The notes under the pieces: generated by a model
The model's input: the letters and a program-made list of their open reading frames with translations, nothing else
Told to the model about the DNA's origin: nothing
Database searches by the model: none
Made by a program: the position numbers and the translations under genes
In this document: positions 13,661 through 50,300 of the stretch, one piece after another
Layout: each line of letters begins with the position of its first letter
Position numbering within the stretch: position 1 is the first letter of the stretch
NCBI RefSeq assembly: GCF_004010195.1
Contig: NC_057726.1
Span: 61,896,335 to 61,960,334 of the forward strand
Length of the DNA stretch: 64,000 nucleotides
Direction of reading: 5' to 3'
Origin: Chiloscyllium plagiosum
Taxonomy: Eukaryota

Positions 13661-13756
13661 GTTACATCTGTTAAAATGGAAATGTTCCTTCCTTCGGCAG
13701 ATTAAACATATTGCTATATGGTTTGTAGGTTAATGTATGCATTCATAACTATGCAT

Positions 13757-16468: not shown

Positions 16469-16571
16469 AGGAGAATGTGAGGACTGAAGAAGGGTTTATG
16501 CCCGAAACGTCAATTCTCCTGTTTCTTGGATGCTGCCTGACCTGCTGCGCTTTTCCAGCAACACATTTTCA
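16469..16571 (+). mobile_element. PLE-like short element, family 1, with hammerhead core
   Basis: CTGAAGA-A-GGGT-TTAT-GCCC-GAAACGTC at 16484-16511; 17-bp direct repeat ggtataacaaaagcagg (16452-16468, 16572-16588). Confidence 0.8.
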
Positions 16572-16620
16572 GGTATAACAAAAGCAGGCAGTTTGAAAAT
16601 CAGACAGAGTAACTGCCATT

Positions 16621-16648
16621 GAGAGAGAGGGAGAGAGAGAGAGAGAGA
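16621..16648. repeat. (GA)n microsatellite
   Basis: gagagagagggagagagagagagagaga. Confidence 0.9.
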
Positions 16649-17893
16649 CCCAAAAGACTGAAACACTCTTTACCAAAGTTACATTTCACATGAAACATCT
16701 TCACAGTAAAACGAAAGAAGCTGACCCAGAGAGATATTCAGCCGGAAGAAGACAGACACTTTGGATGACAGCTGCAGTATGGTTTTGAAATTAAGTCGAT
16801 GTAATTTTAACATGTTTGCATTAGAACAGTATATTGTTGTAGAGTTGGAGGTAGATAATAAACAGTTAAGAGAAAGGGGACGAAGAATTGTGAATAGTTA
16901 TTGATTAATGTTCACTTTTAGAGTTAAAGAATGAGTTTTCTGACTCGTATTTTAACAGATTACGAGGTGAGGTGAGATTTTTCTAGGTGTTTGGTTTAAT
17001 TAATAAAAGGGTTCACCACCATGCCATAACACATAGATGGCTAACATGGATAGAAGATTAGCTGGCTGGCAAGTGGAAAGTAGGGAATGCTTTCATGCAT
17101 CTTTTTCTGAATAGTTGGATGTGATGTTTGGGGTTCTGTAGCAGTTTATGCTGGTACTTCCTCTTTTTATAGTTCATATCAATGACTTGGATGAGGGAAG
17201 GGAAGGTCTTCTAGTTATGTTTGCATGTTACATAAAGATAGTCAGAAAAGTATGTCATGAAGAAGATATAAGGAACTTTCAATCAGGTATTCGTGGATTG
17301 ATTGAGTGGCCAACAATCTGACAGAAGAAATATAATGTGGAAAAATGTGAAGTTGTTCACTTTGGTAGGTAGAATAAAAAAAAAGCTGAGTACTATTTAA
17401 ATGGAGAATGACTGGTGAATTCCAAGGTGGGGAGGGATCTCGGTGCTCTAATACCAGTCAAAAATGTTAGTGCACAGGTATAGCAGGTAATTAAGCCAAT
17501 GGAATGCTATCCTTAAAAATATAACTCCTAAAATAAGAATTTATGCTTCAGTTACACAGGGCATTTGTGAGACCACGTTTTAAACACAATAGGTAGTTTT
17601 GATCTCTTTATATAAGGATGTAGGGGTGTAAAAATATAAATGCACTTGAAGTGGTTCAGAGGAGATTCACTAGATTGATGCCTTCAATGACCATGTTGTC
17701 TTTTGAGGTTATGTTGGGCAGGCTGGGCTTGTATCCACAGGACTTCGGAAGAGTGAGGCTCACTTGATTGAAGATCATTTATTTTTCTTTGGGCGGCGGG
17801 GGTTTGGTTCTGCAACTTTTATAATCTTGGCCTCAAAAAGTAATTAAAGCAGGGCCATTGGGTATTTTTAAGGTGGAGTTAGGTAGATTGTTG

Positions 17894-18008
17894 GATTAGT
17901 GGTGCTGGAAGAGCACAGCAATTCAGGTGCTGCCTGAATTGCTGTGTTCTTCCAGCACCACTAATCCAGAATCTGGTTTCCAGCATCTGCAGTCATTGTT
18001 TTTACCTC
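17894..18008. mobile_element. Fold-back PLE-like short element (family 1-related, core absent)
   Basis: gattagtggtgctggaagagcacagcaattcagg / cctgaattgctgtgttcttccagcaccactaatc hairpin; 15-bp direct repeat ttaggtagattgttg (17879-17893, 18009-18023). Confidence 0.75.
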
Positions 18009-18819
18009 TTAGGTAGATTGTTGTTAGCCAAAGAAATCCAATACTGTTGAGGATAAACGGGAGTATAGAATTTGAAACAAACAAACTGGCCGTTAACTTA
18101 TTGAGTGGTGCAGCAGCTTTGAAGGGCTGAATAGGCTTCTCCTACAATTTTGTGCATATATATGTTCTTAGTTTCACCCATTTGGAGTTTTATTTGCTCT
18201 TTCACATGCAGTGCTCAGAATTCAACTGGTTATTAGATACTAGGTATTCAGTGCCATGGCCGTGTACACTTTGTAGAGTTTCAGTTTCCATTTTATATTC
18301 AATAGAATAATTATTTTACCTTATTAGTACCATGTGCACAGAATTCTAATACCCATTCACATCACTGTCCAGAATTCTTTACTTTTTATTTTCAGCGAGC
18401 AGGATCTAGTGCTCAATTTTTATCCCATTCAACTATTAATTTGTCACCAAATATACACATTTTATTGCGTTCTAAACACTCGTGGTTCAAAACCTTACAT
18501 TTTTATGTTAAATCACATTATACAATTATACTAACTTAAAAATTGTAATCATTGTCAGGGATAACATACTAAGTAATGTTTATAATTATAAAGAGCACAG
18601 ATGAAAAAGACTCTTTTACAATCTGTTCACCTTAGCAAAGGGTCAACATGCAGACTGCGCGAATTTAACCTCGTAGAAGAACTGGAAAGGAAATAAGAAA
18701 ACGGTTTCACCCAGAGGATGGTAGGAATCTGGAAGTCACTGTCTGTAATTTGAGACAGCAAATTATACATTTGAAAACTATTTTCAAATATTGTGACACA
18801 TCAGGGAGGGAGAGAGTTA

Positions 18820-20790
18820 CCTGTACGTTGTGTTTCAGGAGACAGTTACACCACTTAGACTAACTTACTAACTCACATTTGGCCAGTGGTCAGGGACAGG
18901 AGTGTGTAGCTGTGAGTGAGGCAGGTAGAGGGATCCAGGAGGTAGAGTTGCAGGAGCCTCAGCCCCTGTCCTTGTCTGACAGGTTCAAGAATCTTGCTCC
19001 CTGTATGGACAGGATTGGAGACGGGAGGAAGGATGAGCTAACTGACAGCAGCATCATGGTTCAGGGAGCTATTCAGGTGGGGGGATAGAAGAGAAATGTT
19101 GTAATTGGAGATAGTATAGTTAGGGCATTGGATACTGTTCTCTGTGACCAGGATCGAGAGTCTCAAAATTTGTGTTGCCTACCTGGTGCTTGGGTTTGAG
19201 ATATCTAATCTGGGCTGCAGATTCAGGCTCATGTACCACATAGATACCAAAGACTAGTTAAAACTAGGGCAGACATTCTGCTAAGGTACTATGAACAGCT
19301 GGGAGCTAAATTAAAAAGCAGAACCAAAAAGGCAATGATCTCTGGATTACCATCTGAGCCGGTAATTGGCACAATGTCAATAGGATTATGCAGGTAAATG
19401 TATGGCTCAAATATTGGTGTGGGAGAAATGGGTTTGAATTCATGTGCATTAGCTCCAGTACTGGGGAAGAAGGGACCTGTTCCGATGGGACGGTCTTCAT
19501 CTGAATTGTGCTGGGACCAGAGTCATAGTGAATTGCATAATGAGGTCTGTAGACAGGGCTTTAAACTAAATGAGGTGGGGAGGGAGAGAATTCAGTTATC
19601 AGGGCAATTAGAAACCCAATTTAAGTGCAGGTTAGTGATGTGGCAAATGTTATCAGACAATAAAGGTGAGGGATGGAACAGGTGAATATTTATATGCACC
19701 AAGGAATTATATAAAAGTACGGAAATTTAACTGTGGAACAAATTTTAAAGCTTTATATATAAATGCACAAAGCATTCAAAACAAGATTATTGATTTAATT
19801 GCACAAATACAAACAAACGGGGATGATTTGTTAATGATTACCGAGACATAGTTACAAGGAGACCAAATCTGGGAATTGAATATCAAGGGGTACTCAGCAC
19901 TTCAGAAAGATAGATTCAAAGGGAAAGGAGGAGGTGTAACCTTGCTGGTGAAGGAATGGATCAATGCTCATGCTGACATAAGAATGGGAGATCACAATAT
20001 AGATTTAGTCTGGGTAGAAACAAAAAATAGCAAAGGGAAGAAGTATTTGGTAGGAGTAATCCAAAGGTCCCCAAACAGTGGTTCTGCAGTGGGGCACAGT
20101 ATAAACCATGAAATATGAGAGGATTGCAAGAAAGGTATGACAATAATCATGGGTGATTTTAACATGCACATAGATTGGAAGAATCAAATTGGCAACAGTA
20201 GCCTAGGGGCAGAGTTCATTGAATGTATTAGAGATTGTTTCTTGGAACAGCATGTTCTTCTTAGATTTCCTACAGTGTGGAAACAGGCCCTTCAGCCCAA
20301 CAAGTCCATACCGACCCTCCGAAGAGCAACCCACCCAGACCCATTCCCATTCCCTTACATTTACCCCTGCACCTAACATTACAGGCAATTTGGCATGGTC
20401 AATTCACCAAACCTGCACATCTTTGGATGATTCCCAGAGGAAACCCACACAGGCACAGGGAGAATGTGCAAACACCACACAGACAGCTGCCCGAGGCGGG
20501 AATTGAACCTGGGTCCCTGGAGCTGTGAGGCAGCAGTGTTAACCACTGAGCCACTGTGCTGCCCCAATCAGGGAGAAGGCTACTCTGGATGTGGTATTGT
20601 GTAATGAGGAGGCATTATTGATGGCATCACAGTTGAGGATCCTCTTGGGAGTAGTGACCATCGATTGAAGGGATATGGAGAGAAGGCAGCAAAATGGGGG
20701 TGAGGAACATATCAGCTATGATTGAATCACAGAGCAGACTTGATGGGCTGAATGGCCTAATTCTTCTCCTATATTTTATGATCTTATGAA
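18820..20790 (+). mobile_element. Decayed CR1 LINE: ORF1 (esterase-type) + APE endonuclease + short 3' end
   Basis: VIGDS (gtaattggagatagt) and CCLPGA (tgttgcctacctggtgct) ORF1 motifs; ALYINAQSIQNK...ITET; KGKGGGV; IIMGDFNMHIDW. Confidence 0.85.
20260..20566 (-). mobile_element. HE1-like V-SINE inserted in CR1
   Basis: Reverse complement begins gggcagcacagtggctcagtggttaacactgctgcctcacagc...ggttcaattccc; homologous to 4248-4604. Confidence 0.9.
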
Positions 20791-21149
20791 CTTATTTGGA
20801 CACCTCCTATAAGAGGTGTGACCTGTAAGCCTAGGGAACATGTACAGGAAGATGGGATGAGGCTGAATGGCTTCTCATGATTGGCACAGTCAAGATAGGT
20901 CAAATGTTCTTCTGTGTCATAAATGTTCTATGATGCTATGTATATTATTTTCATTTTCTGGTACTTGTATCATTAGTAAGTTATTTATACTGCTTTCTTG
21001 TACCAAACATCATTTGTTATCATCAGTTGTATTCCAATTACATTCTTTGTTTGATACTGTTATGGTAATTGAATTAAAATATAATAAAGATATAATCAAC
21101 TTTATTTTTATTTGTGAATTCTTATACCATATTTCATCACTTACACATT

Positions 21150-21375
21150 TTTAAAACAACATGTTGGAGAAACTCAGCAGGTCTAGTAATCATCTGTGAG
21201 GCAAAACAGAGTTAACATTTCAACCTCAGTGTAATTTTTGTTAAGAAGAACGGTCATTTAGGACTCAGTGTTAACTCTGCTTCTCTCCACACACACATGC
21301 TGCTGAACCTGCTGAATTTCTCCAGCACTTTGTTTGTATTTTGGATTCGCAATATTTGAAATGATTTGCTTTTAC
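21150..21375. mobile_element. Fold-back PLE-like short element, family 3 (decayed)
   Basis: ggagaaactcagcagg...cagagttaacatttc / gttaactctg...cctgctgaatttctccagc. Confidence 0.65.
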
Positions 21376-21931
21376 TTACAAGAATTCACACCAAGTTTTT
21401 TGTTTGCAGTAAGTAGTCCCTCAGAAGCTTTCACTATTTCTGATTTTGGGATGTTGACCCAAGATTAAAGACCAATGAGCAATTTATCAACCTATAATTT
21501 ATGCAAAAAAAAGAAAGCTACTGTCATCTGTGAAACATGCATCATAAAAGCCTACTTTCAATGCAAGTTTTTAATCCATTACTATTTGTTCCAACTCATT
21601 CCACACAAACGAAAGTATGCATTGGATTACAGTGATCACTCTCTTACCTAAGTGGTGAAATTTTCCTCTCGGAGCCTATCATTTCAAGAGTGGCATCAAG
21701 GCAGATGTAAATAGCTGTGCACTTTCTCAAATTTGATCAACCTACTGCAATTAGCAGCAGAATCCCACCTTTTTGTCATTTGGAGACAGAACATGCCCCG
21801 TCAAATTTGATGTGATTATAGATCATAGAGCTGAAATCTGTTTTTGAATCTGCAAGTTTCCTTTTCTACCGAGGTCCCATCTCACTGTCTGATTTCAAAA
21901 TGTTGATATATTGTTACATGCAAAGACCATA

Positions 21932-22841
21932 GGGCAGGATTTTTGGGATGGTCGCAATTTTCATGACTTGCCTCCTGAAGTGTCTGCAGGGAATGCATTT
22001 GCTGAAATGGGCTGCCCTACAGACATTTATTGCTCCAAAGAGCTTTAATTCATTGGTGAGGAATTTCCACACCTCACTTGCAAAGAATTCTGTGACTGCC
22101 AACACTACAGATCCAGCAACGCCGTCAGAAGTAGTGGCCAGGACTGGGACTACAAGTGAGACCAGATAAATGTGAGTGGTGTTATGGTAACCAACTCTTA
22201 TGAAAGAAAGTAAAGCACTGTTTGACCATGGGCATGGGATTGGGAATTTCTGGTAACTGTGAGAGCACTGTGGGTGGGGTTTCTATGGTGAGTGTAAATA
22301 GAAGAAACAAAGATAAGAGGAGAATCACAGAGACAGACTCCCACCGACTGCCATGAAATAAATGGGAAGAAGCCATTTGTGAGGAATGTGAAATCAAGGA
22401 TACTTCCTTAAAACCCAGGATGTTGGTCACCTAGATTTACTTAGGGTTGGAGAGAGATGGTTGCAGGTCTTGATGGAGAAATGTGGGGATTTGGAAGAAA
22501 CAGCCACACTGGATGTACCTTGTTTCGGAGGTGAACACCTACCGTGGAAAAGGGGCCGTTGAGGGAGACATGTCTCATCTGAGAACTGAACAGAATGACT
22601 TGGTGTGCATTCCCATCCCCTCAAACGCCACCTGCCAGTCTCAAAATTGAGGTTAGGGAGAAACGGCCTGAAGTGGTCATCGATTGACAACTTAAGGGCC
22701 TCAATTGTGGAAAGGGCAGGTAGACTAGCGTAGGCCTCACCCATCTCTAATATTATTGACAGAGTGTGGTGAGCTATCCATGGAATTCTAGGTGCACTCC
22801 AGCCCGCAAACCCACTGAGGGGGAGCTGTAAACTTGGACCG
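21932..22841. mobile_element. Probable non-autonomous DNA transposon relic (Harbinger-like)
   Basis: GC-richer block starting gggcaggatttt and ending gtaaacttggacc (a decayed inverted end); family assignment is from recollection of similar shark repeats only. Confidence 0.35.
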
Positions 22842-23660
22842 ATGGTTTCTCTTCAACTGACTTCTTGAAAGTTCTCAGTTGTTACTTGCACATGTTCCAA
22901 ATTCTAACATTAATGCTACTTGTGTTTGTGTAAAAGTTCTTTGTAAATGAGTGAATATAAGGAGTTTGCAAATGGATTAACATCCTTTCTATTTTCATTT
23001 CGAAGTTTCTTAAACTTGCAAAATAATTCCTATGTTGATCTGAGAATCCCAATAATAATTTTAAGATGCCATTGAATGAACATTGTTGGCTACATTCCAT
23101 ATGTTAATAATATCCATGAACAGCTTTTAATCAATTGTTGGATGTCACTGAATATGTGGTGAAAGAAACTTTGAATCCTTTGTTTTTGTGAAGCTGTGAA
23201 GAGTGATTCTGCCCTTCCTGTGTCTAAAGTCACTTGGATGGCTAAGTGTATACCATTAGCTGGTGCCCAGCAGTTGTTCCACCTCTTCCTATGCTGCAAA
23301 TGCTCAACACAGGAACCAATGTATTTTCTACCCTTGTGTAACTGGTGAGCAATACCATTTGTATCCCTTCATTGTCATCTAACTAAAGGTCTAGGCCTAA
23401 AGATCTTTGCTTTTATTTTGAGTGAAAGTTGAAGATTGTCCCTATTGTATTTCTGGTGGCTAGTTTTCTCACTTCAACAGCCTGCCAACTGCTGATGTTA
23501 TTTCTATTTTACACTGATTATTTGCAATCCCATGCCAGGTTTCCCAATCATAGGTTGGGAAAACTTTAATCAATATCAATCTCAGGTATCCCAGGATATT
23601 GTCAAGTTTTTGAGCAGCATAAATCATTAAAGTAATGGCATGCATGCTTGAAAATATACA

Positions 23661-25357
23661 TTGGACTTAAATTGTGCAAACAACAATTGGCTGAACTTGG
23701 CTGAGAACCAGCAGGCCAAACCAGTTCGCTGAAGTGATCTGCCCTTCAACCACTTTTAATGTAATACACACTTTTGAGAAGAATATCCACTTTGGCAATC
23801 TCAATTGACACCGGGTGACTGGCATTATGAAGCCCAACTGCTCAAGTGATTGCGTGGATTCTGGCAACGAACTCTTGCATTGCTTTGCAAGCCAGCAAAC
23901 ATCAAGATATAGGTTTGTGCCCTGCATTGGCATTCCTTAAGTAACTAGAGAACTAAATTGTAGATAAGGTATTTTCGAAAGTCTTCTGCTTTTATAATGT
24001 GTGTGGACTAATCCAGAATTATTTTGGATGTGTTGTGAGTTCTTAGATTGCCAGTGAGTGTTCTTTCATCGCCGTTGGTTAGAGGAGGAATAATAAGTGA
24101 ACATTTTACATGAGATCGGTCAACAGCTGTGAAAGTGCTTCTGTGTCTGCATCATTACAAGGCAATAGATCCAGTTTTACTTGATGCCCTCTATCATGTT
24201 CAGAGCAGACTTTGCCATGCTCCTTCCAGTGCCTGGAACTGGCAGGCCAGCCAATGCAAAAAGCATATGTCTCCATTCGCACTCCAATCCTTAAAGGTGG
24301 TATGGAGTCTTCTATATCAGAAATCATCTCCAGTGAGCTGGCAAATAAATCATCCTTCACCTAACCTGGCTGCAATTCATCCCCATCCATGGTCAGATGA
24401 TTCAGCATAAGCTGATATTCAATGCATACTTATCTTCAGGTTATGTGCAGTGTTAATAACTGTGCTCGTGGCTTTGACTGTCATCTCAAAGGATTGGGAA
24501 TCTCATTAGTGCTGTGCTGTTCCTCTCTTTCTATTTGGGCTCTGTGAGTGTGTAGGTGGCAGCCCTTGGGTACCTGAAAGCAATAATTGAGAGAAGGAAA
24601 GTTGTTGTGAAGGAAGGGTAGTAGAGTGGGAAGCAATAGTCACTCAATTGGTAGTTTGCTTATCATATTAGTTAGCAGGATATGGACGTCTGCGCATTGG
24701 TAACAGGAGTAAGGCAGAAACATACAATCATCCTTAATATTCTCAGAATTCTAGATGATGGGTCACCATAACAGCCTGGTGTTGCGTGCTTTTTAACATT
24801 GTATACCCCAGTCCAACACCAGTTGATCACTTGATAATATACTTTGGACCTAAACTGTGCGAACAACAATTGGCTGAAGTTGGCTGAGAACAAGTAGACC
24901 AAAGCCAGTTTGCTGAAGTGATCTGCACTTCAAGCCACTTTTGATGTGATACACACTTTTGAAAAAGATATCCACTTTGACGATCTCAGGTGACACTGGA
25001 TGGCTGGCCCAACTGCTCAAGTGAATCGCATGGGTTCAGGCAATGAACTCTTGCATTTCTTTGCAAGCTCACAAATGTCAAGATATAGGAATGTGCTTTG
25101 CATTGGCATTACTTAAGTAACTAGTGAACTAAATTGTGGCTAAGGTATTTTCGAAGGCCTTCTGCTATTATAACGTATGTGGACTAATCCAGAATTATTT
25201 TGGATGTGTTGTGAGTTCTTAGATTGCTGTTGGTTGGAGGAGGAATAATAAATGAACATTTTACATGAGATCGGTCAACAGCTGTGGAATTGCTTCTGTG
25301 TCTGCACCATTACAAGGTGACAGATCCAATTTTACATGATGTCTTCTATAATGTTCA
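23661..25357. repeat. Diverged direct duplication, about 520-540 bp units (23661-24202 and 24844-25357)
   Basis: Colinear throughout (e.g. ggactaatccagaattattttggatgtgttgtgagttcttagattgc in both) with scattered substitutions and two indels; both give ...VKLDL.PCN.ADTEA..QLLTDLM in the ORF track. Confidence 0.92.
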
Positions 25358-28300
25358 AAGCGATTGTACAACACTGTGTAATGTGTATGCTCTGAACAAA
25401 TGGCTGAGGGTATGCAAACATGGTGTGATGCTGGCAACATGAATAGCTGTATGATAATAGTGGTGTTTCTGAATATTAGGTATAAAACTGTGAATTTCAG
25501 GAAGTATAGCTGGTGAGTGATGAGGATGTGGTGACTGAGCACCTTGAATGACTGTTGCTGTTGTTAGTATGTGGATAGATATCATGTAAAAATGCATTCA
25601 TTGACCTTTAGCATTTGTGTGAAGTCTTATGACATTGTGGTCTTATGACATCAGAAATTGCTCTTCCTGGCCACTTGCTCTCAGTCCGTTCTTAGGATGA
25701 CTGTTGAGGGCCTGGTATCTTGTGACATCATGGTACTCTCCTCCTGCTTATCTCCACTACTAGAAATACATTCATCAATTTTGAATCCTACCTGTCTTGT
25801 TCCATTTTCGATCATTTGATTTAATCTACTGTTATTCAATGAAGTTGCCCTTTAAAAACAAAAATGCTTTCTGCACCGCATAACATCAGTACAATCCAGA
25901 GGCAACAAACAGTATTGGGAAGATCATTCAATCCCATGCTGTAAGCATAGTAATGAGAAGCTCCAAGGGAATGGGTGTGAGCAATCCTGAATCACATGAC
26001 CTGCACTCACAGGTTTTGGAGAAGAAGATGTTTTAGCCATATATACATTATCATTTGGATATCAGGAGATCAAGATACCATAATCTTAGATGCAGCTCGA
26101 TATATATGCATGTTATAATGCTCGTGAATTAAATCCTTTCTCAACATGCATACTAAACCATTTGCAATAACTGGGCTAAGAACTGGGCTAAGAACTCCTT
26201 TCCCACAAGGAACATCAAGATTCATTGAATGTCTCTTCCCTTCTTGACAGGGGAAGGTAGTATGTAAGAATAAGATTTTACACCATTAACTTAGCTAGCT
26301 GGGCATTGTTCTTAACTCAATGTTGGCATTGACACCAAATAGTATCTTCATCTTGGGTGCCATCATGTTCAATTCTGACCTTGTTTTCATTTAAACGTTT
26401 TAACTGAATGGAAAATATTTTGTTGTGTTGGATAGGTTCAAACATTTTGGTGCTGTAAATAAATGAAACCACTTGAATTCTTTCACTGCTTTTTTCTACA
26501 TTTGGCAGAATAACAGATTGTGCAATTCTAATCAGTAGAGAGGTTGTGCAATTGAACAATTGTAGGTCAGCTATGAAGCTACTGTTTCCTGCCACTCTGC
26601 CCCAAAGATTGAGCGATATAAACTCAATAAAGTATGTTTCTAACCTAGAAGAGTGTGCAATAATACTTTGCTTATCATTTTAATGGAGACATTTGTTATG
26701 TCCTGGCTTAACTTGAGCACAATATGAATAATATTATCTGCTTCAAGATTATCAATCTAACTTGATTAATCAGACTATGTGTTATATGTAGTACAGGATA
26801 CCCAAAGTGTGCACCCAATCTCATTGATGAACTCAAAAACACATCTGAACAACTGACAAAATAGTATCAGATATTTTGTAGTTATGTTCATTTTTAGATC
26901 CAAGTTTATACAGACACAAAATAAGCTACAATTGAATATCAAATTTTCAGCCATCCTTAAGACAATTTTCTACAGCTAAAATAAAAAAAACTCAATTCTC
27001 GAGTCTAAAATTAAACATTAGTTACTCTACGTGGAATGTGCCTTCACTTTCACTGAATTGGATTTCATTGTAATAATACTGAAGCTTGGATGAATTGATT
27101 AAATATTAGAGCCTAATAGCTACAAGTATATCTTAGTTTCTTTGAAATACAGACAAATTGTTTGAAGAATAACTCAGCCCCCGAAAAATCAAAGTACACA
27201 TTTGTCAGAGGTATTACTACCATTTGTCATTGATAATCATTCCAGTTGGCACTTATGTCTTCCTTTCATTGTCGCAAACTGGACTATATTTTCCAAGATA
27301 TTAGTTAACCAATTTCAATGTATTATAAATTTACCACAGATACTAGTCTTACTTTTAAATGAAGATTAATAATGAAGTGAACAGAAGTGGTTCCTATTGT
27401 GGAGGAAATTGAACAACAGTTTCTGACCCTTACACATGCACAACTAAATGGAAATCCAGAAATTGCTGAAGCAAGCCCTTCCACAAACTGTGCCAGATTT
27501 CATTTGTGGCACAGATGGAATCAATTTATATTCTTGAATGTGCGCTTGCTCTCTAGAGAGCAGTCTAATCAAATCCATTTCTGCTGCTATATCTCTATTT
27601 GCTCTTATCAAATTTGTCATGTGGATTCTTCAATGCAGTTTGTTGAAGAGTCATGTTGTTACCTTCCTTGCTAATGCATGCTATAGATTTTGTATAGAAG
27701 CTGCTATGCTGGATCAGACAAATGTGAAAGCAACATACCCTCAAAAGCCAGCAAAATAATCTGTGTATAACATTAAGGATAGAAAATAGTGAGTACTTCT
27801 CCTTCCTTCTCCTTTCATAACAAATTCTGAATCATAAATGGAACCAGAGTGCATTGTTCCATTTCACTCTTAGAATACCTTTCCCATTTTCTCTCCTTTA
27901 AGAGTCAATATACCAAAGGATTTTTTTTTTCAGCATTGACCATTTTCAACTAGCTTTACTGGATGGTCAGTTTAAAATAATATAAACTGTGAATAGCAAC
28001 GCACTGTTGAATTGCAGATGGAAAATCACTCTAATCTAGTTCTAACTTGACACAGATGGAATCATTTTCTGCTATGATTAATGTTTCGAAACATGTATTA
28101 CATCAAAACCAAATTGTGCATTTCCCCCTTGTATCATTGCCCTAGATTTGGTGAGATGATAGTGCGATGTCTAAGTCCAAGAGCCATGAGGTCAGCTATA
28201 AAACCTACTATGCTTGTGATAAGTTCAGATATGCTAAAACTAAGCATTGAACTTGAGACTTCTTGTTCTGCATGATTTAATTTTTATGTTTGTTTATAAA

Positions 28301-29439: not shown

Positions 29440-30150
29440 ACTGGTTACATCCTCAAAATTTGTTTAGCAAGATTTGCCTTTTGTAAACTCATGCTGTCTT
29501 TCTCTAATCCTTAACAATTTCCAAATGTTCTGTTATCTCATCCTTTCTAATGAATTTGAGGATTTTTTTCCACTACTGATTTTAAGCTAATGGGTCTGTA
29601 AATCTCTTTTTTTCTCTCTCTTCTTCCTTTTTTAAATAGTGGGGTTACATTTCCAACTTCCAATTTGGAATTGTTCCACATCCGCAGAATTTTGGAAGAT
29701 GTCTACCAATGCGTCCAATATTTCCAAGGCAACTTTCTTTCATACTCTGGTAATATATCAGGCCCTGGTAATTTGGAGAAAGTGAGGACTGCAGATGCTG
29801 GTGATCAGAGTCGAAAAATGTTGTACTGGAAAAGCCAGGGAGCAGGAGAGTCGAAGTTTCGAGCATAAGCTCTTCATCAGGCATCAACCCTTCATCAGGC
29901 TCTTCCTGATGAATGGCATACTTTCAAAACATCGACTCTCTTGCTCCTTGGATGCTGCCTGACCTGCTATACTTTTCCAGCACCACACCTTTCGGCCCTT
30001 GTAATTTGTCAGTGTTTAACCCCATTAATTTCCCCAGCACATTGTTTTACTCATGCTGAATTTCTTCAATTCTGCCCTCTCACTAAACCCTTGGTGACTT
30101 AAGAATTCTGGTGTGTTATTTGTGCTCTTTTTTGTGAAGACAGAACCAAA
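29440..30150 (-). mobile_element. Decayed CR1 fragment
   Basis: cctttctaatgaatt...actactgattttaagctaatgggtctgta...tttttaaatagtggggttacatt, the reverse complement of RT N-terminal (VTPLFKK..NYRP.SL) sequence. Confidence 0.65.
29776..29993. mobile_element. Fold-back PLE-like short element, family 1
   Basis: Minus-strand core CTGATGA-A-GAGC-TTAT-GCTC-GAAACTTC (29853-29880); 15-bp direct repeat ggccct(g/t)gtaatttg (29761-29775, 29994-30008). Confidence 0.8.
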
Positions 30151-32625: not shown

Positions 32626-32710
32626 TTCAGATAAAACAAGGGCAAAGAAACCACTTCACTCATATCCCCTGCTTATATCCCCATCCTCATTCCCACTTCT
32701 TTGGCTGATA

Positions 32711-33110
32711 TATCTCTGCCTCTTAAAGTTGAACAGCAGTTGGAGGAAGCAATGACTGTGATAATAACGCAAGAGTTTACTCAGCTTGGGGGACTTCAAC
32801 ATTGACCACCAAGGTTGACTCAGTGGCACCACTACTGCTTGGCTATCTCTGCCTCTTAAAGTTGAACAGCAGTTGGAGGAAGCAATGACTGTGATAATAA
32901 CGCAAGAGTTTACTCAGCTTGGGGGACTTCCTGAAGAAGGGCCTGTGCCCGAAACGTCGAATCTCCTGTTCCCTGGATGCTGCCTGACCTGCTGTGCTGT
33001 TCCAGCAATAAAGTTTCAACTTTGATCTCCAGCATCTGCAGACCTCACTTTCTCCTCGGACTTCAATATTGACCACCAAGGTTGACTCAGTGGCACCACT
33101 ACTGCTTGGC
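32711..33110. repeat. Tandem 133-bp duplication; second copy carries an insertion
   Basis: 32711-32843 repeated at 32844-33110, identical except caacattg/caatattg and the insert. Confidence 0.95.
32931..33057 (+). mobile_element. PLE-like short element, family 1, with intact-looking hammerhead core
   Basis: ttc-CTGAAGA-A-GGGC-CTGT-GCCC-GAAACGTC-gaa; TSD ggacttc (32924-32930, 33058-33064), confirmed by the adjacent empty copy. Confidence 0.85.
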
Positions 33111-33159
33111 AGTGAGGAGGTGATTTATTCGCTGCAAGATTCCTAGACTTTGGCCTGCT

Positions 33160-33960
33160 GGTTTATAATGTGGGAAAATGTGAGTTTATGCATTTTGGAA
33201 GGAAGAACTATAGGGCTGAATATTATTTAAATGAAAAAAAATTGCATAAAGGTATAGCATTGAAGGATGTCCAAACGATTGTGCATAAATCACAATAAGC
33301 TAGCATACACATTCAGTAGATGACAGGGAAGGCAAATGGGTTGATGGACTTCCTTCTAATGGGAATGGAGCATAAAAATAGGGACAGCTCACTATAACTA
33401 TACATGGCACCAGTTGCACCAAACCTAGAATAGTGTGAACAGATTTGCCTGAATAAACTTATCTGAAAATGATACACTAGCATTGGAGGCAGACCAGTGA
33501 ATGTTCTGTAGGTTGGAATCCTGAGTATAGAGGTATTGTCTTACGAAGAGAGGTTGAGTAGGTTGGGTTGTAATCATTGGCGTTTAATAGAATGAGAGGC
33601 ATCTTATTGAAACATATAAGATTCTTTGCAAGTTGACAGGACATTTGCAGAAAAGTTGTCTCCAATTACAAGAGAGTGTAAGATCACAATCTACTCTTAC
33701 CTCAGAGTAATGGGTTGCCCATTTAAGGTAGAGATGAGGAGAGTTTTTTCTTTCTCTCAGAGGATAGTGGATCCATGGAATTGTTTACAGGAGAGGAGTG
33801 CAGATGCTGGATTTCAAATCAGTAAAAGAATCAAGTGTTATGGCAAAAAGGTAGGAAAATGAAATTGAGGATGATCAGATAATCTCTTTGAATGGTGGAG
33901 CCATTCATTGGTGGGCTGAATAACTTACATCTGTTCCCATCTGTTAACTTCTATGGTGTT
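33160..33960 (+). mobile_element. Decayed CR1 3' region
   Basis: aatgtgggaaaatgtgag...tacgaagagaggttgagtagg...ttgaaacatataagattc; FSQRIVDPWNCL. Confidence 0.8.
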
Positions 33961-37563: not shown

Positions 37564-37609
37564 TCATCCATTATGCAGAGCTAGTTCCATCAGAACAATC
37601 ATATTTGTG

Positions 37610-41159: not shown

Positions 41160-41390
41160 GTAGAGGGGAAAGATTTTGAAGAGACCTACGGGGCAACTTT
41201 TTCATGCAGAAGGCGGTGCATGTATGGAAGGAGCTGCTATAGGAAGTGGTGAGGCTGGTATAATTACAATATTTAAAAGGCATCTGGATGGGTATATACA
41301 TAGGAAGGGTTTAGAGGGATATGGGGCAAATGCTGGCAAATGGGAACAGATTAATTTAGGATATCTAGTCAGCATGGATGAGTTGGACCA
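41160..41390 (+). mobile_element. CR1 3' end fragment
   Basis: ggggcaactttttcatgcagaagg...tttaaaaggcatctggatggg...atggatgagttggacc. Confidence 0.85.
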
Positions 41391-41837
41391 AAAGGCACAT
41401 TCTTTTCAGTGTCCTGGGCCCAGAAATTTTCAGCTGCTTCAGCAATGACTCTGAGCCAAAGATGTGTAATCCTCAGTTAAGTGACGGAGGGCTGCTGTCA
41501 GTCAAGAGTCCTGGTACAGTCTGTCAAGATCACTTGCAGTCAGGGACTCAGGACGTTCCTCTCACTGCAGTCCAGGTACAGTGGAAGCAGGAGATTGTCA
41601 GCTGGGGAGGTGTATGGAGAGTGGTCAGTGTGAAAGCTGCACAATATCACAGAACTGTTTCCTGCTCAACTTAAACTGTAAGTATGCGACATGCTCTTAT
41701 ATGCAATGTTTTCTTTTGTGGATGATATGGATCTGGGGAGAAGAGATCAGTATTCATGCAGCACTTACAACCTTCTACTGTCTCTTTGTGGTATGACTGG
41801 TACTGCACTGATTAGATTAAGGTGCAATGTCTAAGTT

Positions 41838-41920
41838 CAAAACAACAAATGCTGCAGGCCACAGCAGGTCAGACAGAATCTTTGAAGAGAGAGCAAGCTA
41901 ACGTTCTGGCTTCACCAGAA
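41838..41920 (-). mobile_element. PLE-like family 3-related fragment
   Basis: aaatgctgcaggccacagcaggtcagacag...gagagagcaagctaacgtt. Confidence 0.5.
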
Positions 41921-41929
41921 CACTATTTT

Positions 41930-42930: not shown

Positions 42931-43567
42931 AAACTACTCGCGATAGAAATTAGAAATACAGATGAAAATGGAAATGAACTGAAGAGTAGAAGAATATCTC
43001 TTGCAGAGAGACAGTGAGCACCTAAAGGGCCAAAACACCCTTTTGCTGTGTTATAAAATTTTAAAATTTGACAGAACGAAGTTTTTCCACAGACGTATTT
43101 AGCAGTTAACTTTTCCAGTTTTAAAGTTCCTGACAGCGTAAAGCTCCTGAAATGTTTCTTTTAAAAAAAAATACACCATTACACATCATACAGATTAAAA
43201 ATACACCTGTACCAAATGAAGACGGTTTGCAGAGTAGGGTAGGTGGGTAGGGTGCACAAATGCAGATGGTTTTCCTACTCATGACAAAGCAGAGGATTTG
43301 TGACCTGCTGAGAGGGACACTTCCATTGCATCCACCCATTTCTTCCTAGCATGTAAGGCATGCATTTAAGCTACAGACAAGTTTTCATGTATCAGGATAA
43401 GGTATGCAAGACAGTATCTTGACAGCAACAAATTAATAAAATCAAACAAAAAGAAGGCAAATTAAAATTCTTCCAATACATTGTGTTGAAAACTCTCCTG
43501 AAAATACACTTGAGTACAGGAAGGAGTTGAATATATGTGGCATAATATTATTTTAAATCTCCTTCAG

Positions 43568-43671
43568 TACTCCCAACTCCACTAAAGATAATCTCTTCAG
43601 CACCAGGAGATGGTTCGTCTACTTCTCTGTTGCTCATGTATAACACAGCTGAATTTTACCCAGAGAAAATA
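43568..43671 (+). pseudogene. Truncated, decayed C1-domain exon of a paralog
   Basis: ctccttcag acceptor; phase 1 reads VLPTPLKIISSAPGDGSSTSLLLMYNTAEFYPEKI, aligning to ASPHPLKII...CKTSGFYP of the intact exon. B-strand Cys is replaced by Tyr (TAT); homology breaks and a stop follows. Confidence 0.75.
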
Positions 43672-44006
43672 GGGGAAATTAATTTAATTCTTTAGCTCAT
43701 AGTTGCAAACTGTATTCTTGATGGATCAAATTTCCAATTGCTTGGAAATGATGCAACCACAATATAGAGAAATGTTAGCAATATATTTTCTATGTTCTAT
43801 ATATAGCAACATTTATGTAATTGGGAAGATAACTGACAAATGATATTTAATACTGAAAATGTGCAATCAGTGAAAATATTTACATTAACTAAACATTGGA
43901 TTAAATACAAGTTTTGTGGAATGCTCGGAATAATGACTTGGAATTGACATAAGAGCAACCTCTTCCCAACAAGAGGGAATTATTGATAAACCAAGTATAC
44001 ATACAG

Positions 44007-44195
44007 GGCAAAAATGAGGACTGCAGATGCTGGGAACCAGAGATTAGATCAGAGTGATGCTGGAAAAGCACAGCAGGTCAGACAGCACCCGAGGAGCAGG
44101 AAAATCGACGTTTCAGGCAAAAGCCCTTCATCAGGAATCCTGATGAAGGGCTTTTGCCCGAAACATTGATTTCCCTGCTCCTTGGATGCTGCCTG
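44007..44195. mobile_element. Fold-back PLE-like element, family 1, with two divergently oriented hammerhead cores
   Basis: Minus core 44107-44134 (CTGATGAAGGGCTTTTGCCTGAAACGTC), plus core 44140-44167 (CTGATGAAGGGCTTTTGCCCGAAACATT); 17-bp direct repeat accaagtatacatacag (43990-44006, 44196-44212). Confidence 0.85.
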
Positions 44196-46799
44196 ACCAA
44201 GTATACATACAGCCAGGTCATTATTTCTATATAAGGACAGAGATTTTCCAACATTTTGTAATTATCTGGTAAGACCATAATGTACAACTATGGTCTTCAT
44301 TTCTCAAAAGATAAAGACACTTGTGCTGGACTGGGTGAATCCAAGTATTAAGGACACGTTAGAACATTCAGATTAGGCTGTAAATTTGAAGAGAAGGGTA
44401 AATATGTGATATTGATAAGACACATTCAGCGTTGATTCCAACCAGTGGACTATTGGATTAAATGGGTAAAATTTAAATTAAAAATTAGCCAACAATGATA
44501 AAGCTTTAGAGAGTTTGCAGGGTTATATGCGAGTGAACAAAAGCTTAGATCAATTGGAATCACGAAAGAGTGGATTCACTTTTCTCACTCTTGTCTATTT
44601 TGGAATATTTTTGACACTACTTCGGTCCATATTCACCCATTAATTTTAATGATATGATTAGAACTATATGTTTTATTTGGAGAACCTGCACCCTTTACAA
44701 AGAAACTCAAAACTCTATTTGGTAGAGGCTGCATACAGTTAGATTAGATGGTTTCTCCTTTCTTTGACATTTGTTTCATTCTTGCATACTATTTTGTTTC
44801 ACATTCATGCATTCTTTATATCCGATGAACACTGAAACATTTTGTATGTCCAAACCATGTTGGTGGACAACACAGTTATATTTTTATGGATAATAAGATG
44901 TTTGTGTTATTTTCTCAGCTTTGTAATATTATTAATCTTTCACTTTACCTAATGTTATTTGCTACTTAATCACACAATTACTTAATGTGATTCAGAGCCT
45001 GCAATATATTGGGATTTGAAGTGTTTTCATGAAAATTGTTGCTGATTTTTAGCTGTACAAAAGTAATGGTATATATTGAAAATAGCTTTTTAAAATGTAC
45101 AAGTCAAGTGGTAAAAACAGACGCAGAAAAATCCCGTTAATTTATTTGGAGAACATGGGCGTCCACTCTATAGGAAACCTGATAATGCTTCCATATTGCC
45201 ACATTTTCTAAAGATGTATCCATTTAAGAGGGCATACAAACATGAAGAAGAAAATGGAAAATGGTCCAGTTTTTCATTTCACTGTAACCAAATCACAGAG
45301 TATCAGGGCACAAATATTTAACATTATGAAATGGTGGGACAGAGTAGTTATAACCAAAGTATTTCCCTCAGTAATAATACAACCTCGAATGAGACAGAAT
45401 CTAAGTTTCGATAATAAATGCAAGTGGTTTAGAACAAAGTCAAGATAGATATCTTTTCAGAGAGACTTGAGATGCTGTGGGGTTACTTTTCAGGGTAATT
45501 TGTTAAACCAACAAGCTATGGTGACATGCAGGGTTAGACTGGTGATTATGTGAATGAAACAAGAAAAAGAGGTGAGATGAAGTATAAGGATAGCATGGAT
45601 AGGTTGTCTCGCGTGGAAGGTGACTGTCAGTAGTGAATGAGTAACCGTGGCCTTTACATTACAGAAACTGTATTGTGCTTATATGCTAGCTTGATTGCAA
45701 ATTGTTCACTTGCTTCACTGAATTCCGCATACAAAAAAGTTTGATCTAATCCCGAGTTTATCACAGATGTGTTTAATCAGATTGTAACCATCTCTGTATG
45801 TTATAATCAATAATGTTTTCTCTATTTGTACCGCTCCTTTATCCATTTGATTGCAAATATTCTGCACTCTGATTCTGCCTCAACATGTCACATTTTATTT
45901 CTAAATATCCATTCAACAGTACCCCCATTCTTTATTCATCAAAAGCCTATCAACACCCCTATCTATTCAATTCACTAGGATACTGATCTTGATTTGGTTG
46001 AAGTGCAGCCCTTCAAACTGATGAGCTCCCTTACTCCTCAGCACTGATTCCAGTTCCCCAGAATGGAAGCCTTTATTTCCTCCGACATTCTTTGAGGCTT
46101 ACATTTAATTCTCTAAGCTTTTTTTTTTATTCAAGTTCTATTGGCACATAGCTTAGGACCGAGTAATTATTAGCTTTCATTTTCTGCATTTTAATTTGTA
46201 AGCCAAATATACAAACTATCACAGCAAAACACCAATTTCAGTTCTACAAATGCATTTGGTATCTCAGTTGACCAACAGAATATTGGTGGAGCCTATTTAA
46301 TTAGCCCTGAGTAAATTCCTTTTAAATTGTTTATCACACATATTTAAAAGGAAATCTAGAAGCTAAATAGCAAAAGCTTTATTTAGATAATATTTAATGC
46401 AATTAATTGCACTAAAAGAATATTCTCAGATTCTCAGTGGGCAATACATAAAGGGAGAAAATTGTAACACATTGTTTTGACATGTATGGATCATTTTTGT
46501 TTTATGTTCTTAACACTTCAGTGACAACATTGAGCTCTCAAGAATGTCTGTAGCTTTTGTTTCAATAAAGGAGTTGACTTGCTACTTTATTGTTTTTGAA
46601 AGAAACCTAGATATGCTGCAAAACTTCAGATAAACGTGATATGAAACACAAAGATTAATTTCTACAGGGTGAAGTAGGAATGTACACAGATATTATTCCT
46701 TGTTTGTATAGTCTCTCAATTAAATTTAATGATCAGGAGTTTATTTCATCAGAACCTCACACCTTCAAAGAGATGTCTTCAAAAAGAAGTAATGTTAAC

Positions 46800-48360
46800 A
46801 GAAGTCATAGAATCATAGAGATTTTACGGCACGGAAAAAGTCATCTCCCCAACGTATCCACATGGGTTATCAAGCATGTATTCAAATCACATTCATCATC
46901 ACTCAGTCCACAGCCTGGAATGCTATGGCATCTCACATTTTCATCTCAAAATTTCTTACACTACAAACAGCAAAACACCAGCACTGCCTATATATTACAC
47001 CGCTGGACACGTTGGCAGTCACAAAAACATAATTGAACCATCCCTTTCTGCTCCCTGCCACAAAGTCAAATTTGGATCTAATTTGCCTAGGATCACCTGA
47101 CTGTTAGCTTCATAGTCAATCTGTCATGTTAGATCTTGTCCAAAGCTGTACTGAAATTCATATCGTGTGCATCTATTAAGTTATCCCTACATACACACTT
47201 AGACTTCATCGCAAAAGCTTCAATCAAATGCTTTAGACATGATCTCCCACTGACAAAGCTGTGACTATATTTGATTAATTATTGTTACTCTTTGTGGAAA
47301 TTAATTCTGAACATCAGAATCTTTTGTAATGATTTCCCTAACATTGTGTTATACTCACTGGCCTTTAATCTATTCCTGGCACCCTTCTTGAATAATGACA
47401 TCACATTAGCTGTTCTTCAGTTCTCTGGCACTCCTCCTATGTGAGAGAACATTTGAAAGTTATCACCAGAACCCTTGCCCGCCATAGTAGCCTGGATGTG
47501 TCTCAAATGGCCCTGTGGCTTTCTCTACTTATGAGCCTGCTACAATTGCTAATACCTACTCTGTCCCAATGCTACTTTTTATTTACATCACAGATGTGGC
47601 CTGTGATTTCTATACTCATGTTGTCTATCTCTTATCACGAATACAGATGCAAAGAAGACATTTTAAATCACAGCTATGTCCTCATTGCCGCTGGCATTCT
47701 TAATGGGGCCTACTCTTTCCCTGGATATTCCCATGCAAATGATTTACTCACAAACATTTATAGATATTCCACAATGTTACCTGCCAATGATTTTGTTTCA
47801 TGTCACTCTCCTATCTCCGAAATTATTTATTTAAGTAATCCCCTGAACTTAAAACACTCCTCTAAGGCATTCATTGCTTTGCAGCCTCTGCAGAGCCACA
47901 ATTCCTTCTGTCTCCATTGTCCTTATTCTGATATCCCACACCATCCAGGGTTCTCTGAAATGGTTCATCCCACCCTTCACTTTTCCAAGAACATGTTTGA
48001 CATGTACTCTCACTATTGTCCTTTTAAATGACCTCTACTACTCTGATGTGGATTTTCCTGCGAGTAGTTGATCCCAGCCAACTTTGGCCAGATCATGTAT
48101 TGTCATGTTGAAATTGGCATCCCTCCAATTCAGCGCCTTCCCTTTTAAGTCTATCGTTGCACTAATCTATAATTACGTTTAATCCTACTGAATTATGGCC
48201 GCCATCACCGAAATGCGCCTCAACTGACACGTGCTAATTCTCCGGCTTCTTTCTCTGAAGTTTGTTCCAGCATCGCGTCGTAAACCCCTACACCCCACCT
48301 CCCGGCATTCCAAACTTCCTTCATTAGACTTTCGAATGTTGCCTTCAATGCTCTCTCGAA
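46800..48360 (-). mobile_element. Heavily deleted CR1 LINE
   Basis: Tail catagaatcatagag at about 46807; RT-type remnants (gacatgatctcccactgacaaag; acccttcttgaataatgacatcacattagc). Confidence 0.7.
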
Positions 48361-48369
48361 TATATTTTA

Positions 48370-48573
48370 GGATATGGAGGTGCTGTTGTTGGCTCGGGTT
48401 GGACAAAGTCCGATGTCACGCGACATCAGGTTATAGTCCAACAGGTTTATTTGAAATCAAAAGCTTTTGGAGCCCTCCTCCTTCCTCAGGTGAAGTGGGG
48501 AAGGATGAGCGCTCCGAAAGCTTGTAATTTCAAATAAACCTCTTGGCCTATAACCTGGTGTCGTTTGACATCT
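48370..48573. mobile_element. Fold-back PLE-like element, family 2
   Basis: caggttatagtccaacaggtttatttgaaat / atttcaaataaacc...tataacctg arms; gctccGAAAGCTT; 12-bp direct repeat gaatatatttta (48358-48369, 48574-48585). Confidence 0.8.
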
Positions 48574-49073
48574 GAATATATTTTAAGAATTGCCCACCTC
48601 AGCTTTTCACACGCCGTTTATCCTCCAGACGGGGAAGCAAAGGGGTGCAAAAACAAATAAGAAATTGGAAAGTGAAGCAAAAGCAGAGTCAGAGACAAAT
48701 AGCAACATGAAATATAGCAAAAGCAAATTTGACAATCATCATTATTTGTGACTCGTGCAAAGTCCCGGGAGTTTGACGAATTCTTTATGTTATAGTCTTT
48801 TACCGCTTTGCTAAGACGACAAAACTGACAGTTTATTGAAATCAATGAGTAGTGTTACGGAAGTAATGATAATCCTTACGCTTTGGGCAGGAGGAATGTT
48901 CCTAACTCTGAGCCAAGAGGCCCGTGTTCAAGTGTACCTGCTCCGGAGATTTGAAATAATATCGCTGAACCGATTGATTAGAAAATATCACGTGCGTCTT
49001 TCCCTTTCTCCACTAGATGGCACTGCATTCTCTTCAAGATTGGAAGTGATCTATGACTTCTCAATTACATCAA

Positions 49074-49158
49074 CCACCGGTGAAGGAGCGGCGCTCCGAA
49101 AGCTAGTGCTTCCAATTAAACCTGTTAGACTATAACCTGGTGTCGTGTAATTTTTAAC
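49074..49158 (+). mobile_element. PLE-like element, family 2, hammerhead-like core with damaged 5' strand
   Basis: cac-CGGTGA-A-GGAGC-GGC-GCTCC-GAAAGCTA-gtg; 12-bp direct repeat caattacatcaa (49062-49073, 49159-49170). Confidence 0.8.
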
Positions 49159-49986
49159 CAATTACATCAATGCAGCAAAAATATTCTTTTTCTTCCTAGC
49201 AGGAGTGTACCCGGATTGGGAAACATGCTGCTACGCTTAATGAGTCTGAACTCGCCGTGAAATTCTTAACTAAGTACGAAGTGATGTATGACAATTAAAG
49301 ACAATCTGATGTAGAAATGATTATTTAGTTTTTCATGTTTCCATTTGGAAAACTGCAAATTGTTTCAGCAATAAAAAATAGCCACGTGATTCATACAAGC
49401 ACACCAGATGTTGCTCTGGTATTGCCTTTGTCACATTTTCTCAGATCCATTTTGTAATTTGGTTTAAATGTAATGACATGGTCACAAAGTAACGACAGAG
49501 ACAAAAACATTCAAACCAATATGATAAGCAAAGACATTCGACGGAGCCATACTGGAAAGCCATGTTTCCAATGTGAAATGACGATATATGTATTTCAGCT
49601 GTAAATCATTTACATTCATTCAAATGCAAACTGAATTCATTTCAGGAAACAACTTTTTGAGATACAGTACATGGGCAATTTGAGACATGACGTGATAGGT
49701 GCCACATGATTGAGAGCAGTAGATTAGTTTCGACTGGGTCAGGAACTGATGGACTGAGTTACAGAGACCGACTGTCATAACTAATCAACATCAGAATCAC
49801 TGTATCATCCAACAACTGTTGGTTAGATAGATCTTACAATTTTTATCTTTTTTGTCCAATAATTCCGACGTTTCCTAAATAGATCAATTCATTTTTATGA
49901 TTGACATCTATTACAGTAAAATTGAGATGGTCTGAATGGTGCTCATTCTAGTATTGGAGTTTTGTTGTATTTCATCTATATTGCAG

Positions 49987-50100
49987 GTACAAGCATTGCC
50001 TCCTGCAGTTACTGAATCTTTGATATTGTCGTGGGTTCTCTGGCAATCATAATATTGTTGCTTATCCTGGCTGATGATTTCATATTGTGGAGAGGTAAAG
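49987..50100 (+). pseudogene. TM exon of the paralog with an in-frame stop
   Basis: ttgcag acceptor, aaag|gtaag donor; 114 nt, phase 1-1, same as 6700-6813. GTSIASCSY*IFDIVVGSLAIIILLLILADDFILWRGK; TGA sits at the codon that is TGG (Trp) in the intact gene. Confidence 0.75.
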
Positions 50101-50162
50101 GTAAGAGTCGCTGTTTTAACTGGATAGTTCGAATTAAACAGTTTAGAAAAGGGAAACATATG

Positions 50163-50300
50163 CAAAATACTGCGAATGCTGGAAATCTGACTTAATATAA
50201 GTTTTGTTGAGAGAAACAGTTAACGTTTCGAATCTACTATAACTCTTCTTCAGATGTTGCCACAAATATATGGAGTTTCTCCAGGAATTTTCTGTTTTAA
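50163..50300. mobile_element. PLE-like element, family 3, with minus-strand hammerhead core
   Basis: Minus 50222-50253: CTGAAGA-A-GAGT-TATAGTAG-ATTC-GAAACGTT followed by aac. Confidence 0.7.

Follow-up and report, generated by a model that had tools for sequence, protein, structure and literature searches.

Short dispersed insertions with minimal hammerhead motifs in a bamboo shark genome probably derive from Penelope-like retroelements

In a stretch of 64,000 nt from Chiloscyllium plagiosum (NC_057726.1, positions 61,896,335 to 61,960,334; hereafter the window), short dispersed repeats carry the letters of a hammerhead ribozyme core, which raises the questions of where these repeats come from and whether they still act as ribozymes. 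The initial annotation described about 12 elements of 85-240 bp in three families between 16469 and 50300. The three families were recovered, but the count is 13 insertions of about 80-235 bp, together 3% of the window, and three of them (at 13.4k, 13.8k and 56k) lie outside that range (Table 1). The family 1 core motifs at 16484 (+), 32931 (+), 44140 (+), 44134 (-) and 29880 (-) and the family 3 motif at 50253 (-) were seen again with the stem II pairs that had been named, each with one extra base after A9. Family 2, in contrast, had been counted among the well-preserved cores, and none of its five arms has an intact one.

A strict descriptor of the minimal type I hammerhead (core, stem II of at least 4 bp, GAAA, palindrome and UH) was matched by four of the 15 hammerhead-bearing arms, those at 16484, 32931, 44134 and 50253. 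These four matches in the real window compare with a mean of 0.2 (maximum 2) across 20 dinucleotide shuffles. An Rfam scan of the whole window, with E-values of at most 5 admitted, yielded weak matches, 11 in all, and no hammerhead family was among them; the best were microRNA models over the palindromes at 44k and 17.9k, which stayed below the gathering scores and were set aside as generic hairpins.

Table 1. Hammerhead-related insertions in the window. Asterisks mark approximate boundaries; core positions are followed by the strand.
Positions	Family	Form	Tail	Hammerhead region	Target duplication
13372..13590*	2	head-to-head palindrome, both strands	+ arm	13457 (-), G8 lost; 13471 (+), C3, G5 and G12 lost	
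13757..13991	3	palindrome	+ arm	decayed cores, 13847 (-) and 13853 (+)	possible, 10 bp, 1 mismatch, 13747-13756 / 13992-14001
16469..16571	1	+; inverted tail piece of 16-21 nt joined to tailless arm	see form	arm starts at C3, 16484 (+); core intact, stem I lost	17 bp, 16452-16468 / 16572-16588
17894..18008	1	palindrome; both arms begin downstream of hammerhead	+ arm	no core	15 bp, 17879-17893 / 18009-18023
21258..21380*	3	decayed solo, +	present	begins within stem II	
29776..29993	1	palindrome	- arm	29880 (-), helix III palindrome broken; core restarts for 18 nt at 29898 (-); 29906 (+), G12 lost	15 bp, 1 mismatch, 29761-29775 / 29994-30008
32931..33057	1	solo, +	present	predicted cut after C17 at 32958	7 bp, 32924-32930 / 33058-33064; empty site in neighbouring tandem copy near 32791
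41842..41920*	3	decayed remnant, -	none seen		
44007..44195	1	palindrome	- arm (full)	C3 at 44134 (-), core intact; + arm of 58 nt, C3 at 44140, helix III palindrome broken	17 bp, 43990-44006 / 44196-44212
48373..48573	2	palindrome	- arm	48489 (-), G12 lost; + arm with broken 5' core	15 bp, 1 mismatch, 48358-48372 / 48574-48588
49074..49158	2	solo, +	none	stems I and II and GAAA intact; CUGANGA broken	12 bp, 49062-49073 / 49159-49170
50167..50300	3	palindrome; internal deletion	- arm	50253 (-), core intact, weak stems; + arm coreless	possible, 9 bp, 1 mismatch
55932..56100*	1	palindrome, strongly decayed	- arm		

The build of the insertions is distinctive. Nine of the 13 are head-to-head palindromes whose centres vary between copies, and solo arms also occur. 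A tail of 30-40 bp is present on exactly one arm in all nine two-armed insertions and in two of the four solos. Target duplications of 12-17 bp flank six insertions, above all of 150 random pairs used as a control, which scored at most 10; duplications of 7-10 bp, two of them only possible ones, flank three more. The palindromic two-arm build, the one-sided tail and the target duplications had gone unmentioned in the initial annotation.

This anatomy supports the origin from Penelope-like elements (PLEs) that had been proposed for the repeats. Insertions of endonuclease-positive PLEs consist of head-to-head inverted pLTRs with an optional tail of 30-40 bp at one end, target duplications and microhomology joints, and solo pLTRs occur as well (Arkhipova et al. 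2013, PMC3846280; Craig et al., bioRxiv 2021.04.23.441226). The shark unit has the same build as the units described there (PMC3846280), but it corresponds to the pLTR end alone, with no ORF between the arms. Judged by its sequence, the motif is the published minimal hammerhead (min-HHR) of PLEs, so that its kind was already known and the shark families are additions to it. The min-HHR consensus comprises CUGANGAH, G10.1-C11.1, GAAA, a short palindrome, UH and a helix I of about 3 bp; there are several families per genome, mostly as single motifs tied to truncated PLEs, and some motifs form pairs on opposite strands with 100-700 bp between them (Cervera and De la Pena 2014, PMC4209133). Apart from helix I, the consensus features, together with the several families per genome and the occurrence as singles and opposite-strand pairs, are common to the shark copies, which differ from those min-HHRs in their short stem II (4-5 bp). 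The part of its supplementary alignment that was compared contains no shark.

The family majority cores (CUGANGA, GAAA, UH) are identical between families at 10-11 of 11 positions, and agreement elsewhere is far lower, namely 1-2 of 6 in stem I and 5-9 of 29 in the ungapped downstream part; the paired stems are family-specific. A core no better conserved between families than its flanks, which would have spoken against a ribozyme, was thus not seen. Helix III is absent and positions 15.2-16.2 are palindromic (CG in families 1 and 3, GC in family 2), C11.1 is the majority letter in aligned public contigs (59% at 44115, contig set X15), and all four descriptor matches have an extra base between A9 and 10.1. 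An extra base after A9 is present as annotated; its reading as a rare viroid-like variant is to be dropped, since the extra base, like the palindromic helix III, is a published hallmark of PLE min-HHRs (PMC4209133).

The evidence from the stems is weaker. Paired differences between the stem I strands hold at the family level, where the pairs differ and still pair, but the pairs originally cited are partly derived from junctions: the ttc of 32931 coincides with the target duplication, and the aatc of 44140 is the palindrome centre. Examples of such family-level pairs are CAC/GTG in family 2 and GTT/AAC at 13853. An alignment of the 13 window arms, with one row off by a base, gave no significant covariation, as its score was matched by 86 of 500 shuffles. 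The percentage paired over these arms was 61%, matched by 22 of 500 shuffles, and a slide by +1 scored equally well; helix I was paired in 47%.

Core and palindrome are both kept in just four of the 15 arms that span the hammerhead region, and only 32931 combines a full core, the palindrome and a 3-bp stem I. In family 2, the arm at 49078 has a perfect GGAGC/GCTCC stem yet a broken CUGANGA, and the other arms lack G12, G8, C3 or more. Most copies are decaying at CpG sites. In the aligned contig depth, G12 is lost in about 7-10%, the helix III CpG bases in about 9-22% and one non-core CpG in about 13-18%; the somewhat lower loss of G12 than of this non-core CpG could reflect some constraint or an alignment bias. 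The predicted probability of stem II is 0.00 at 44134, which lies in palindromic context, versus 0.84-0.88 at 32931, and folding predictions place the motif of palindromic copies within a long hairpin. We consider it probable that the insertions were copied from the hammerhead-bearing pLTR of endonuclease-type PLEs, and that they are now inert, decaying relics and not working ribozymes.

Public contigs suggest a family 1 copy number of roughly 10^5-10^6, with a rough estimate of 2-6 x 10^5, in support of the very high abundance that had been claimed from the window. The copy number of these elements is likely to be unusually high. The largest vertebrate min-HHR counts, about 4,000 in coelacanth and 9,000 in Xenopus tropicalis (PMC4209133), are far below the rough shark estimate, which would also top the 126,247 hammerhead motifs of the axolotl, where they belong to non-LTR retrozymes (Cervera and De la Pena 2020, PMC7229834; Li et al., bioRxiv 2026.07.22.740005). 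Since motif class and insertion anatomy were already published, the finding is notable mainly for this abundance.

The contigs also locate the 5' edge. In two contig sets, likely DNA, loose ends pile up at 44137-44139, directly 5' of the core, and the letters beyond them are mixed (agreement 0.31-0.35); the edge of family 1 lies 3-9 nt before C3. This position of the edge suggests that the templates were likely uncleaved RNA. A loose end of 13 contigs at 44105, one base off the predicted cut, came from contig set X8 (8,630 aligned records), which we guess to be RNA; its first letters show a change of the CpG type, and it was not taken as a cleavage signal.

A dedicated short non-autonomous RNA would account equally well for the very sharp 5' edge and for subfamilies of variable length. 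Transcription of master copies of about 130 nt would begin immediately upstream of stem I, a PLE protein would mobilise them in trans in the manner of a SINE, and the hammerhead would be retained for its function in the master RNA. In line with this, the top loose ends listed share no upstream sequence beyond the fixed edge, the spacer lengths of the subfamilies differ by non-multiples of three, no protein relative of the frame tested was found, and the copy number is very high. However, a PLE mRNA start or a stop of reverse transcription at that place would yield an identical edge, rare long copies may exist among the 863 loose-end rows beyond the top ones listed, and most copies are decayed. 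We regard such masters as unlikely.

Much less probable still are monomers of non-LTR retrozymes spread through hammerhead cleavage and RNA circles. Such retrozymes are likewise non-coding, PLE-related, sometimes very numerous and equipped with a type I hammerhead, and they are known from one chondrichthyan and related to pLTRs (bioRxiv 2026.07.22.740005). Yet retrozymes come as tandem repeats, have canonical hammerheads and form circular RNAs, whereas the shark copies lie scattered as solos or head-to-head pairs and bear minimal motifs, and the window contains no head-to-tail array of them. Moreover, no window copy begins at the cut site, this site is absent among the top loose-end rows listed for the two likely-DNA contig sets, and copying of a circle would continue past the core. 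Miniature inverted-repeat DNA transposons or chance hairpins with incidental hammerhead-like letters, to which the palindromic form, the target duplications and the non-significant covariation would correspond, are already largely refuted by the asymmetric ends with a tail on one arm, duplications ranging from 7 to 17 bp, differing centres, solo arms, a core common to otherwise unrelated families and the excess of descriptor matches over shuffles.

For the preferred origin from PLE pLTRs, a course of insertion can be proposed by analogy with Poseidon PAc of Anolis carolinensis. There, the tail is defined by two internal starts of reverse transcription that lie slightly more than 100 nt downstream of the hammerhead, the targets are AT-rich and uncleaved RNA is the main template (Frangieh et al. 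2024, PMC11167929). We liken these features to the shark families, the biochemistry being that of PAc. A PLE protein would nick AT-rich DNA, and reverse transcription would begin internally on the RNA, at either of two sites separated by about 40 nt, which in family 1 may lie at about +89 and +128 from C3; the short arm at 44k, ending at +58, matches neither and speaks against them. Copying would pass back through the uncleaved hammerhead and halt 3-9 nt beyond C3. The inverted arm would arise from second-strand synthesis, which would either use the remaining nick and the alternative start site or be primed by fold-back; at the palindrome centre the 5' edges of both arms would be joined. Selection on the ribozyme fold probably took place in the source elements; there the hammerhead would show weak cleavage, either as a dimer or aided by protein, while inserted copies would mutate freely.

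It is tempting to speculate further, though we hold it to be doubtful, that the hammerhead reservoir of bamboo sharks is larger than any counted so far and comprises several hundred thousand copies of a PLE-mobilised mini-element of roughly 130 nt, with the 5' edge of the uncleaved ribozyme as its boundary and with one-tailed palindromes recording two-strand priming by a dimeric PLE protein at its two internal start sites. If so, the ribozyme fold would be a boundary or protein-binding signal and not a pair of scissors.

The link to a PLE ORF suggested by the initial annotation was not found in the open frames of the window that were scanned. Among the 178 longest of its 714 open frames of at least 40 aa, a Pfam search gave no GIY-YIG match, and the RT matches were without PLE support; AP-endonuclease fragments are located elsewhere in the window. 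The ORF of PAc begins at stem II; for the one shark frame tested, of 42 residues in the 32931 copy, no relative was found in two protein collections, which for so short a query is weak evidence. Motif searches of viral and metagenome collections revealed no homologous locus. The family 1/3 motif hit no viral and 81 metagenome loci and the family 2 motif 10 viral loci, and all 91 were dropped as chance, because in no case does the similarity to the element extend past about 38 bases around the seed.

Such a large number of insertions, in which a sharp 5' edge goes along with two 3' ends and palindrome centres that vary, provides a natural data set on the role of the hammerhead in PLEs and on the formation of inverted pLTRs. 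Where copies occupy introns, a side effect would be many fold-back RNAs. The two insertions at 13372..13590 and 13757..13991 are located in the same intron of an Ig-superfamily gene.

The hammerhead motifs in the window are real, mostly decayed and of an already described kind, and the insertions bearing them are very probably derived from Penelope-like elements (PLEs). The core positions listed in the initial annotation were confirmed on re-reading the sequence, and a type I hammerhead descriptor returned four strict minimal matches (16484+, 32931+, 44134- and the family 3 core 50253-) whereas 20 dinucleotide-shuffled sequences averaged 0.2. An extra base after A9 is present in all four. Self-comparison revealed 13 insertions (six of family 1, three of family 2 and four of family 3), which together occupy approximately 2 kb, equal to 3% of the window length. 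The hammerhead region is included in 15 arms; core and palindrome are kept in four of them, with a 3-bp stem I in addition at 32931 alone, and no family 2 arm has an intact core. A search with Rfam gave no hammerhead match in the window.

Comparison of family majorities (drawn from 13 of the 15 arms) revealed agreement at 10-11 of 11 core positions, at 1-2 of 6 in stem I and at 5-9 of 29 in an ungapped downstream stretch. Once gaps were permitted, the downstream body and the tail were found to be common to families 1 and 3. The low pair counts may speak against the ribozyme reading, although the arms are few and decayed: over 13 arms, 61% was paired (22 of 500 shuffles were equally high), the covariation score was reached by 86 of 500 shuffles, and a +1 slide scored equally well.

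Coordinates of insertions and other features in the window
Feature	Position	Remark
Ig-superfamily gene, exon	1920-2228	
Ig-superfamily gene, exon	6687-6758	
Ig-superfamily gene, exon	~14630-14830	
Insertion 13.4k	13372-13590	single base separates arms
Insertion 13.8k	13757-13991	single base separates arms
Insertion 16.5k	16469-16571	tail scrap fused at C3
Insertion 17.9k	17894-18008	arms overlap 3' of core
Tandem duplication, ~1.18 kb	23647-25361	identity 84-88%
Insertion 29.9k	29776-29993	18-nt restart at centre
Hammerhead-core restart	29881-29898	as if re-primed once copying hit the 5' edge
Tandem duplication, 133 bp	32686-33111	within old LINE-like fragment
Insertion 32.9k	32931-33057 (+)	solo
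Tail-like piece, family 1/3	33786-33825 (-)	isolated, no body seen
Insertion 44k	44007-44195	single base separates arms
Family 2	48409-48575, 49074-49158	AATAAA-like hexamer ~10 nt past predicted cut site
Family 3 match	57320-57370	short, decayed; left out of the 13

Nine of the 13 insertions are head-to-head arm pairs with varying palindrome centres, and in all nine exactly one arm has a 30-40 bp extension, the tail. The tailless arm ends about 40 nt short of the tailed one, at 44k instead at +58. Target duplications of 12-17 bp, found in six of the 13, exceed all 150 random pairs. At the 32.9k copy the duplication is 7 bp long; since the empty target of this copy survives in the neighbouring, first unit of the 133-bp tandem duplication, the insertion probably took place after, or together with, the tandem duplication. 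Adjacent inverted pLTRs (the PLE end repeats), an optional tail at one end, target duplications and head-to-head palindromes are hallmarks of endonuclease-positive PLEs (PMC3846280; bioRxiv 2021.04.23.441226), and the shark insertions show this anatomy. Of the initial claim of PLE-derived, very abundant ribozyme elements, the origin is very probable from the insertion hallmarks and the abundance likely as an order of magnitude, while the expected RT/GIY-YIG partner was not found. None of the 178 longest open frames scanned (of 714 with at least 40 aa in the window) encodes GIY-YIG, no relative of one 42-residue frame in the 32931 copy was found in two protein collections, and no homologous locus was present among 91 motif-matched loci from viral and metagenome collections.

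To estimate abundance, four public runs were aligned to 43930-44290 at 80% likeness. Matching contigs numbered 58,253 and 42,377 in the sets X15 and X16 (kind unstated, likely DNA) and 8,630 in a third set, guessed to be RNA; the fourth run, raw RNA, yielded 0 reads and carries no weight either way. Summed depth, which is no copy number, was 12-24 in the left flank and 6-7 million in the hammerhead in X15, and 13 and 2.7-3.8 million in X16 (64% of the run covered). By depth, family 1 would have about 2-6 x 10^5 copies, as an order of magnitude only, in agreement with the window density of six family 1 insertions per 64 kb scaled to the genome, which we take to be about 3.8 Gb. Among the best six rows per set (863 more exist), loose ends fell at 44137-44139, just 5' of C3, in four of six rows in X15 and three of six in X16. 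Their letters have about five bases in common and diverge thereafter (agreement 0.31-0.35); therefore, among these rows, most copies reaching this point end 3-9 nt before the core. Recurrent joints connect an inverted 3' part to 44138-44141, which is the build of the 16.5k copy. Among the rows listed, G12 is altered in approximately 7-10% of contig depth, both CpG bases of helix III in 9-22% and the non-core CpG 44090-44091 in 13-18%.

In Anolis, the Poseidon protein starts reverse transcription at two internal RNA sites, setting the tail, and nicks and extends both target strands at AT-rich sites; the hammerhead does not cleave unless protein is added, and templates are mainly uncleaved RNA (PMC11167929). 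The shark copies fit this description: counted from C3, one arm has its 3' end near +89 and the other near +128, and the core is kept at the 5' edge, an outcome that no cleaved linear template could yield. No copy within the window starts at the predicted cut site. Probably, short cDNAs are made from the pLTR end of a PLE RNA, copying halts at stem I (either the RNA start or a polymerase stop), and head-to-head joining follows two-strand priming or fold-back. Once inserted, the motif decays. The predicted stem II probability is 0.00 at 44134 with flanks versus 0.84-0.88 at the solo 32931; in palindromes the motif is predicted to lie buried inside a long hairpin.

This motif was defined in 2014 by Cervera and De la Pena (PMC4209133), and their definition already has the palindrome, the G10.1-C11.1 pair and a base that separates positions 9 and 10.1. 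In their data, motifs are mostly solitary and come from truncated PLEs, closely spaced opposite-strand pairs also occur, and cleavage was low and seen in dimers only; the supplement alignment examined is without shark. Non-LTR retrozymes tied to pLTRs were reported in one chondrichthyan (bioRxiv 2026.07.22.740005), canonical type I motifs in the axolotl number 126,247 (PMC7229834), and PLE expansion was reported for whale shark introns (bioRxiv 443036). The shark and cartilaginous-fish hammerhead literature covered, with Repbase, Dfam and most subscription papers outside it, does not describe these families, whose sharp 5' edge and likely abundance are noteworthy. The hexamer of family 2 could be a polyadenylation signal; minimal hammerheads of turtle and one Xenopus likewise have such a hexamer in the 2014 supplement alignment (PMC4209133).

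The window has a G+C content of 39% and one N run. The Ig-domain stretch 1923-2213 encodes 97 residues identical to a protein labelled Chiloscyllium plagiosum by its source, and matches Hemiscyllium and Stegostoma proteins at 88% and 77%, respectively, which marks the host as a bamboo shark or something very closely related. The remaining coding remnants are LINE-type RT and AP-endonuclease fragments. Names for the Ig-superfamily gene conflict among sources (Ig light chain-like, NCR3 ligand-like, tapasin-like, CD276-like), and one of its introns contains two of the palindromes.
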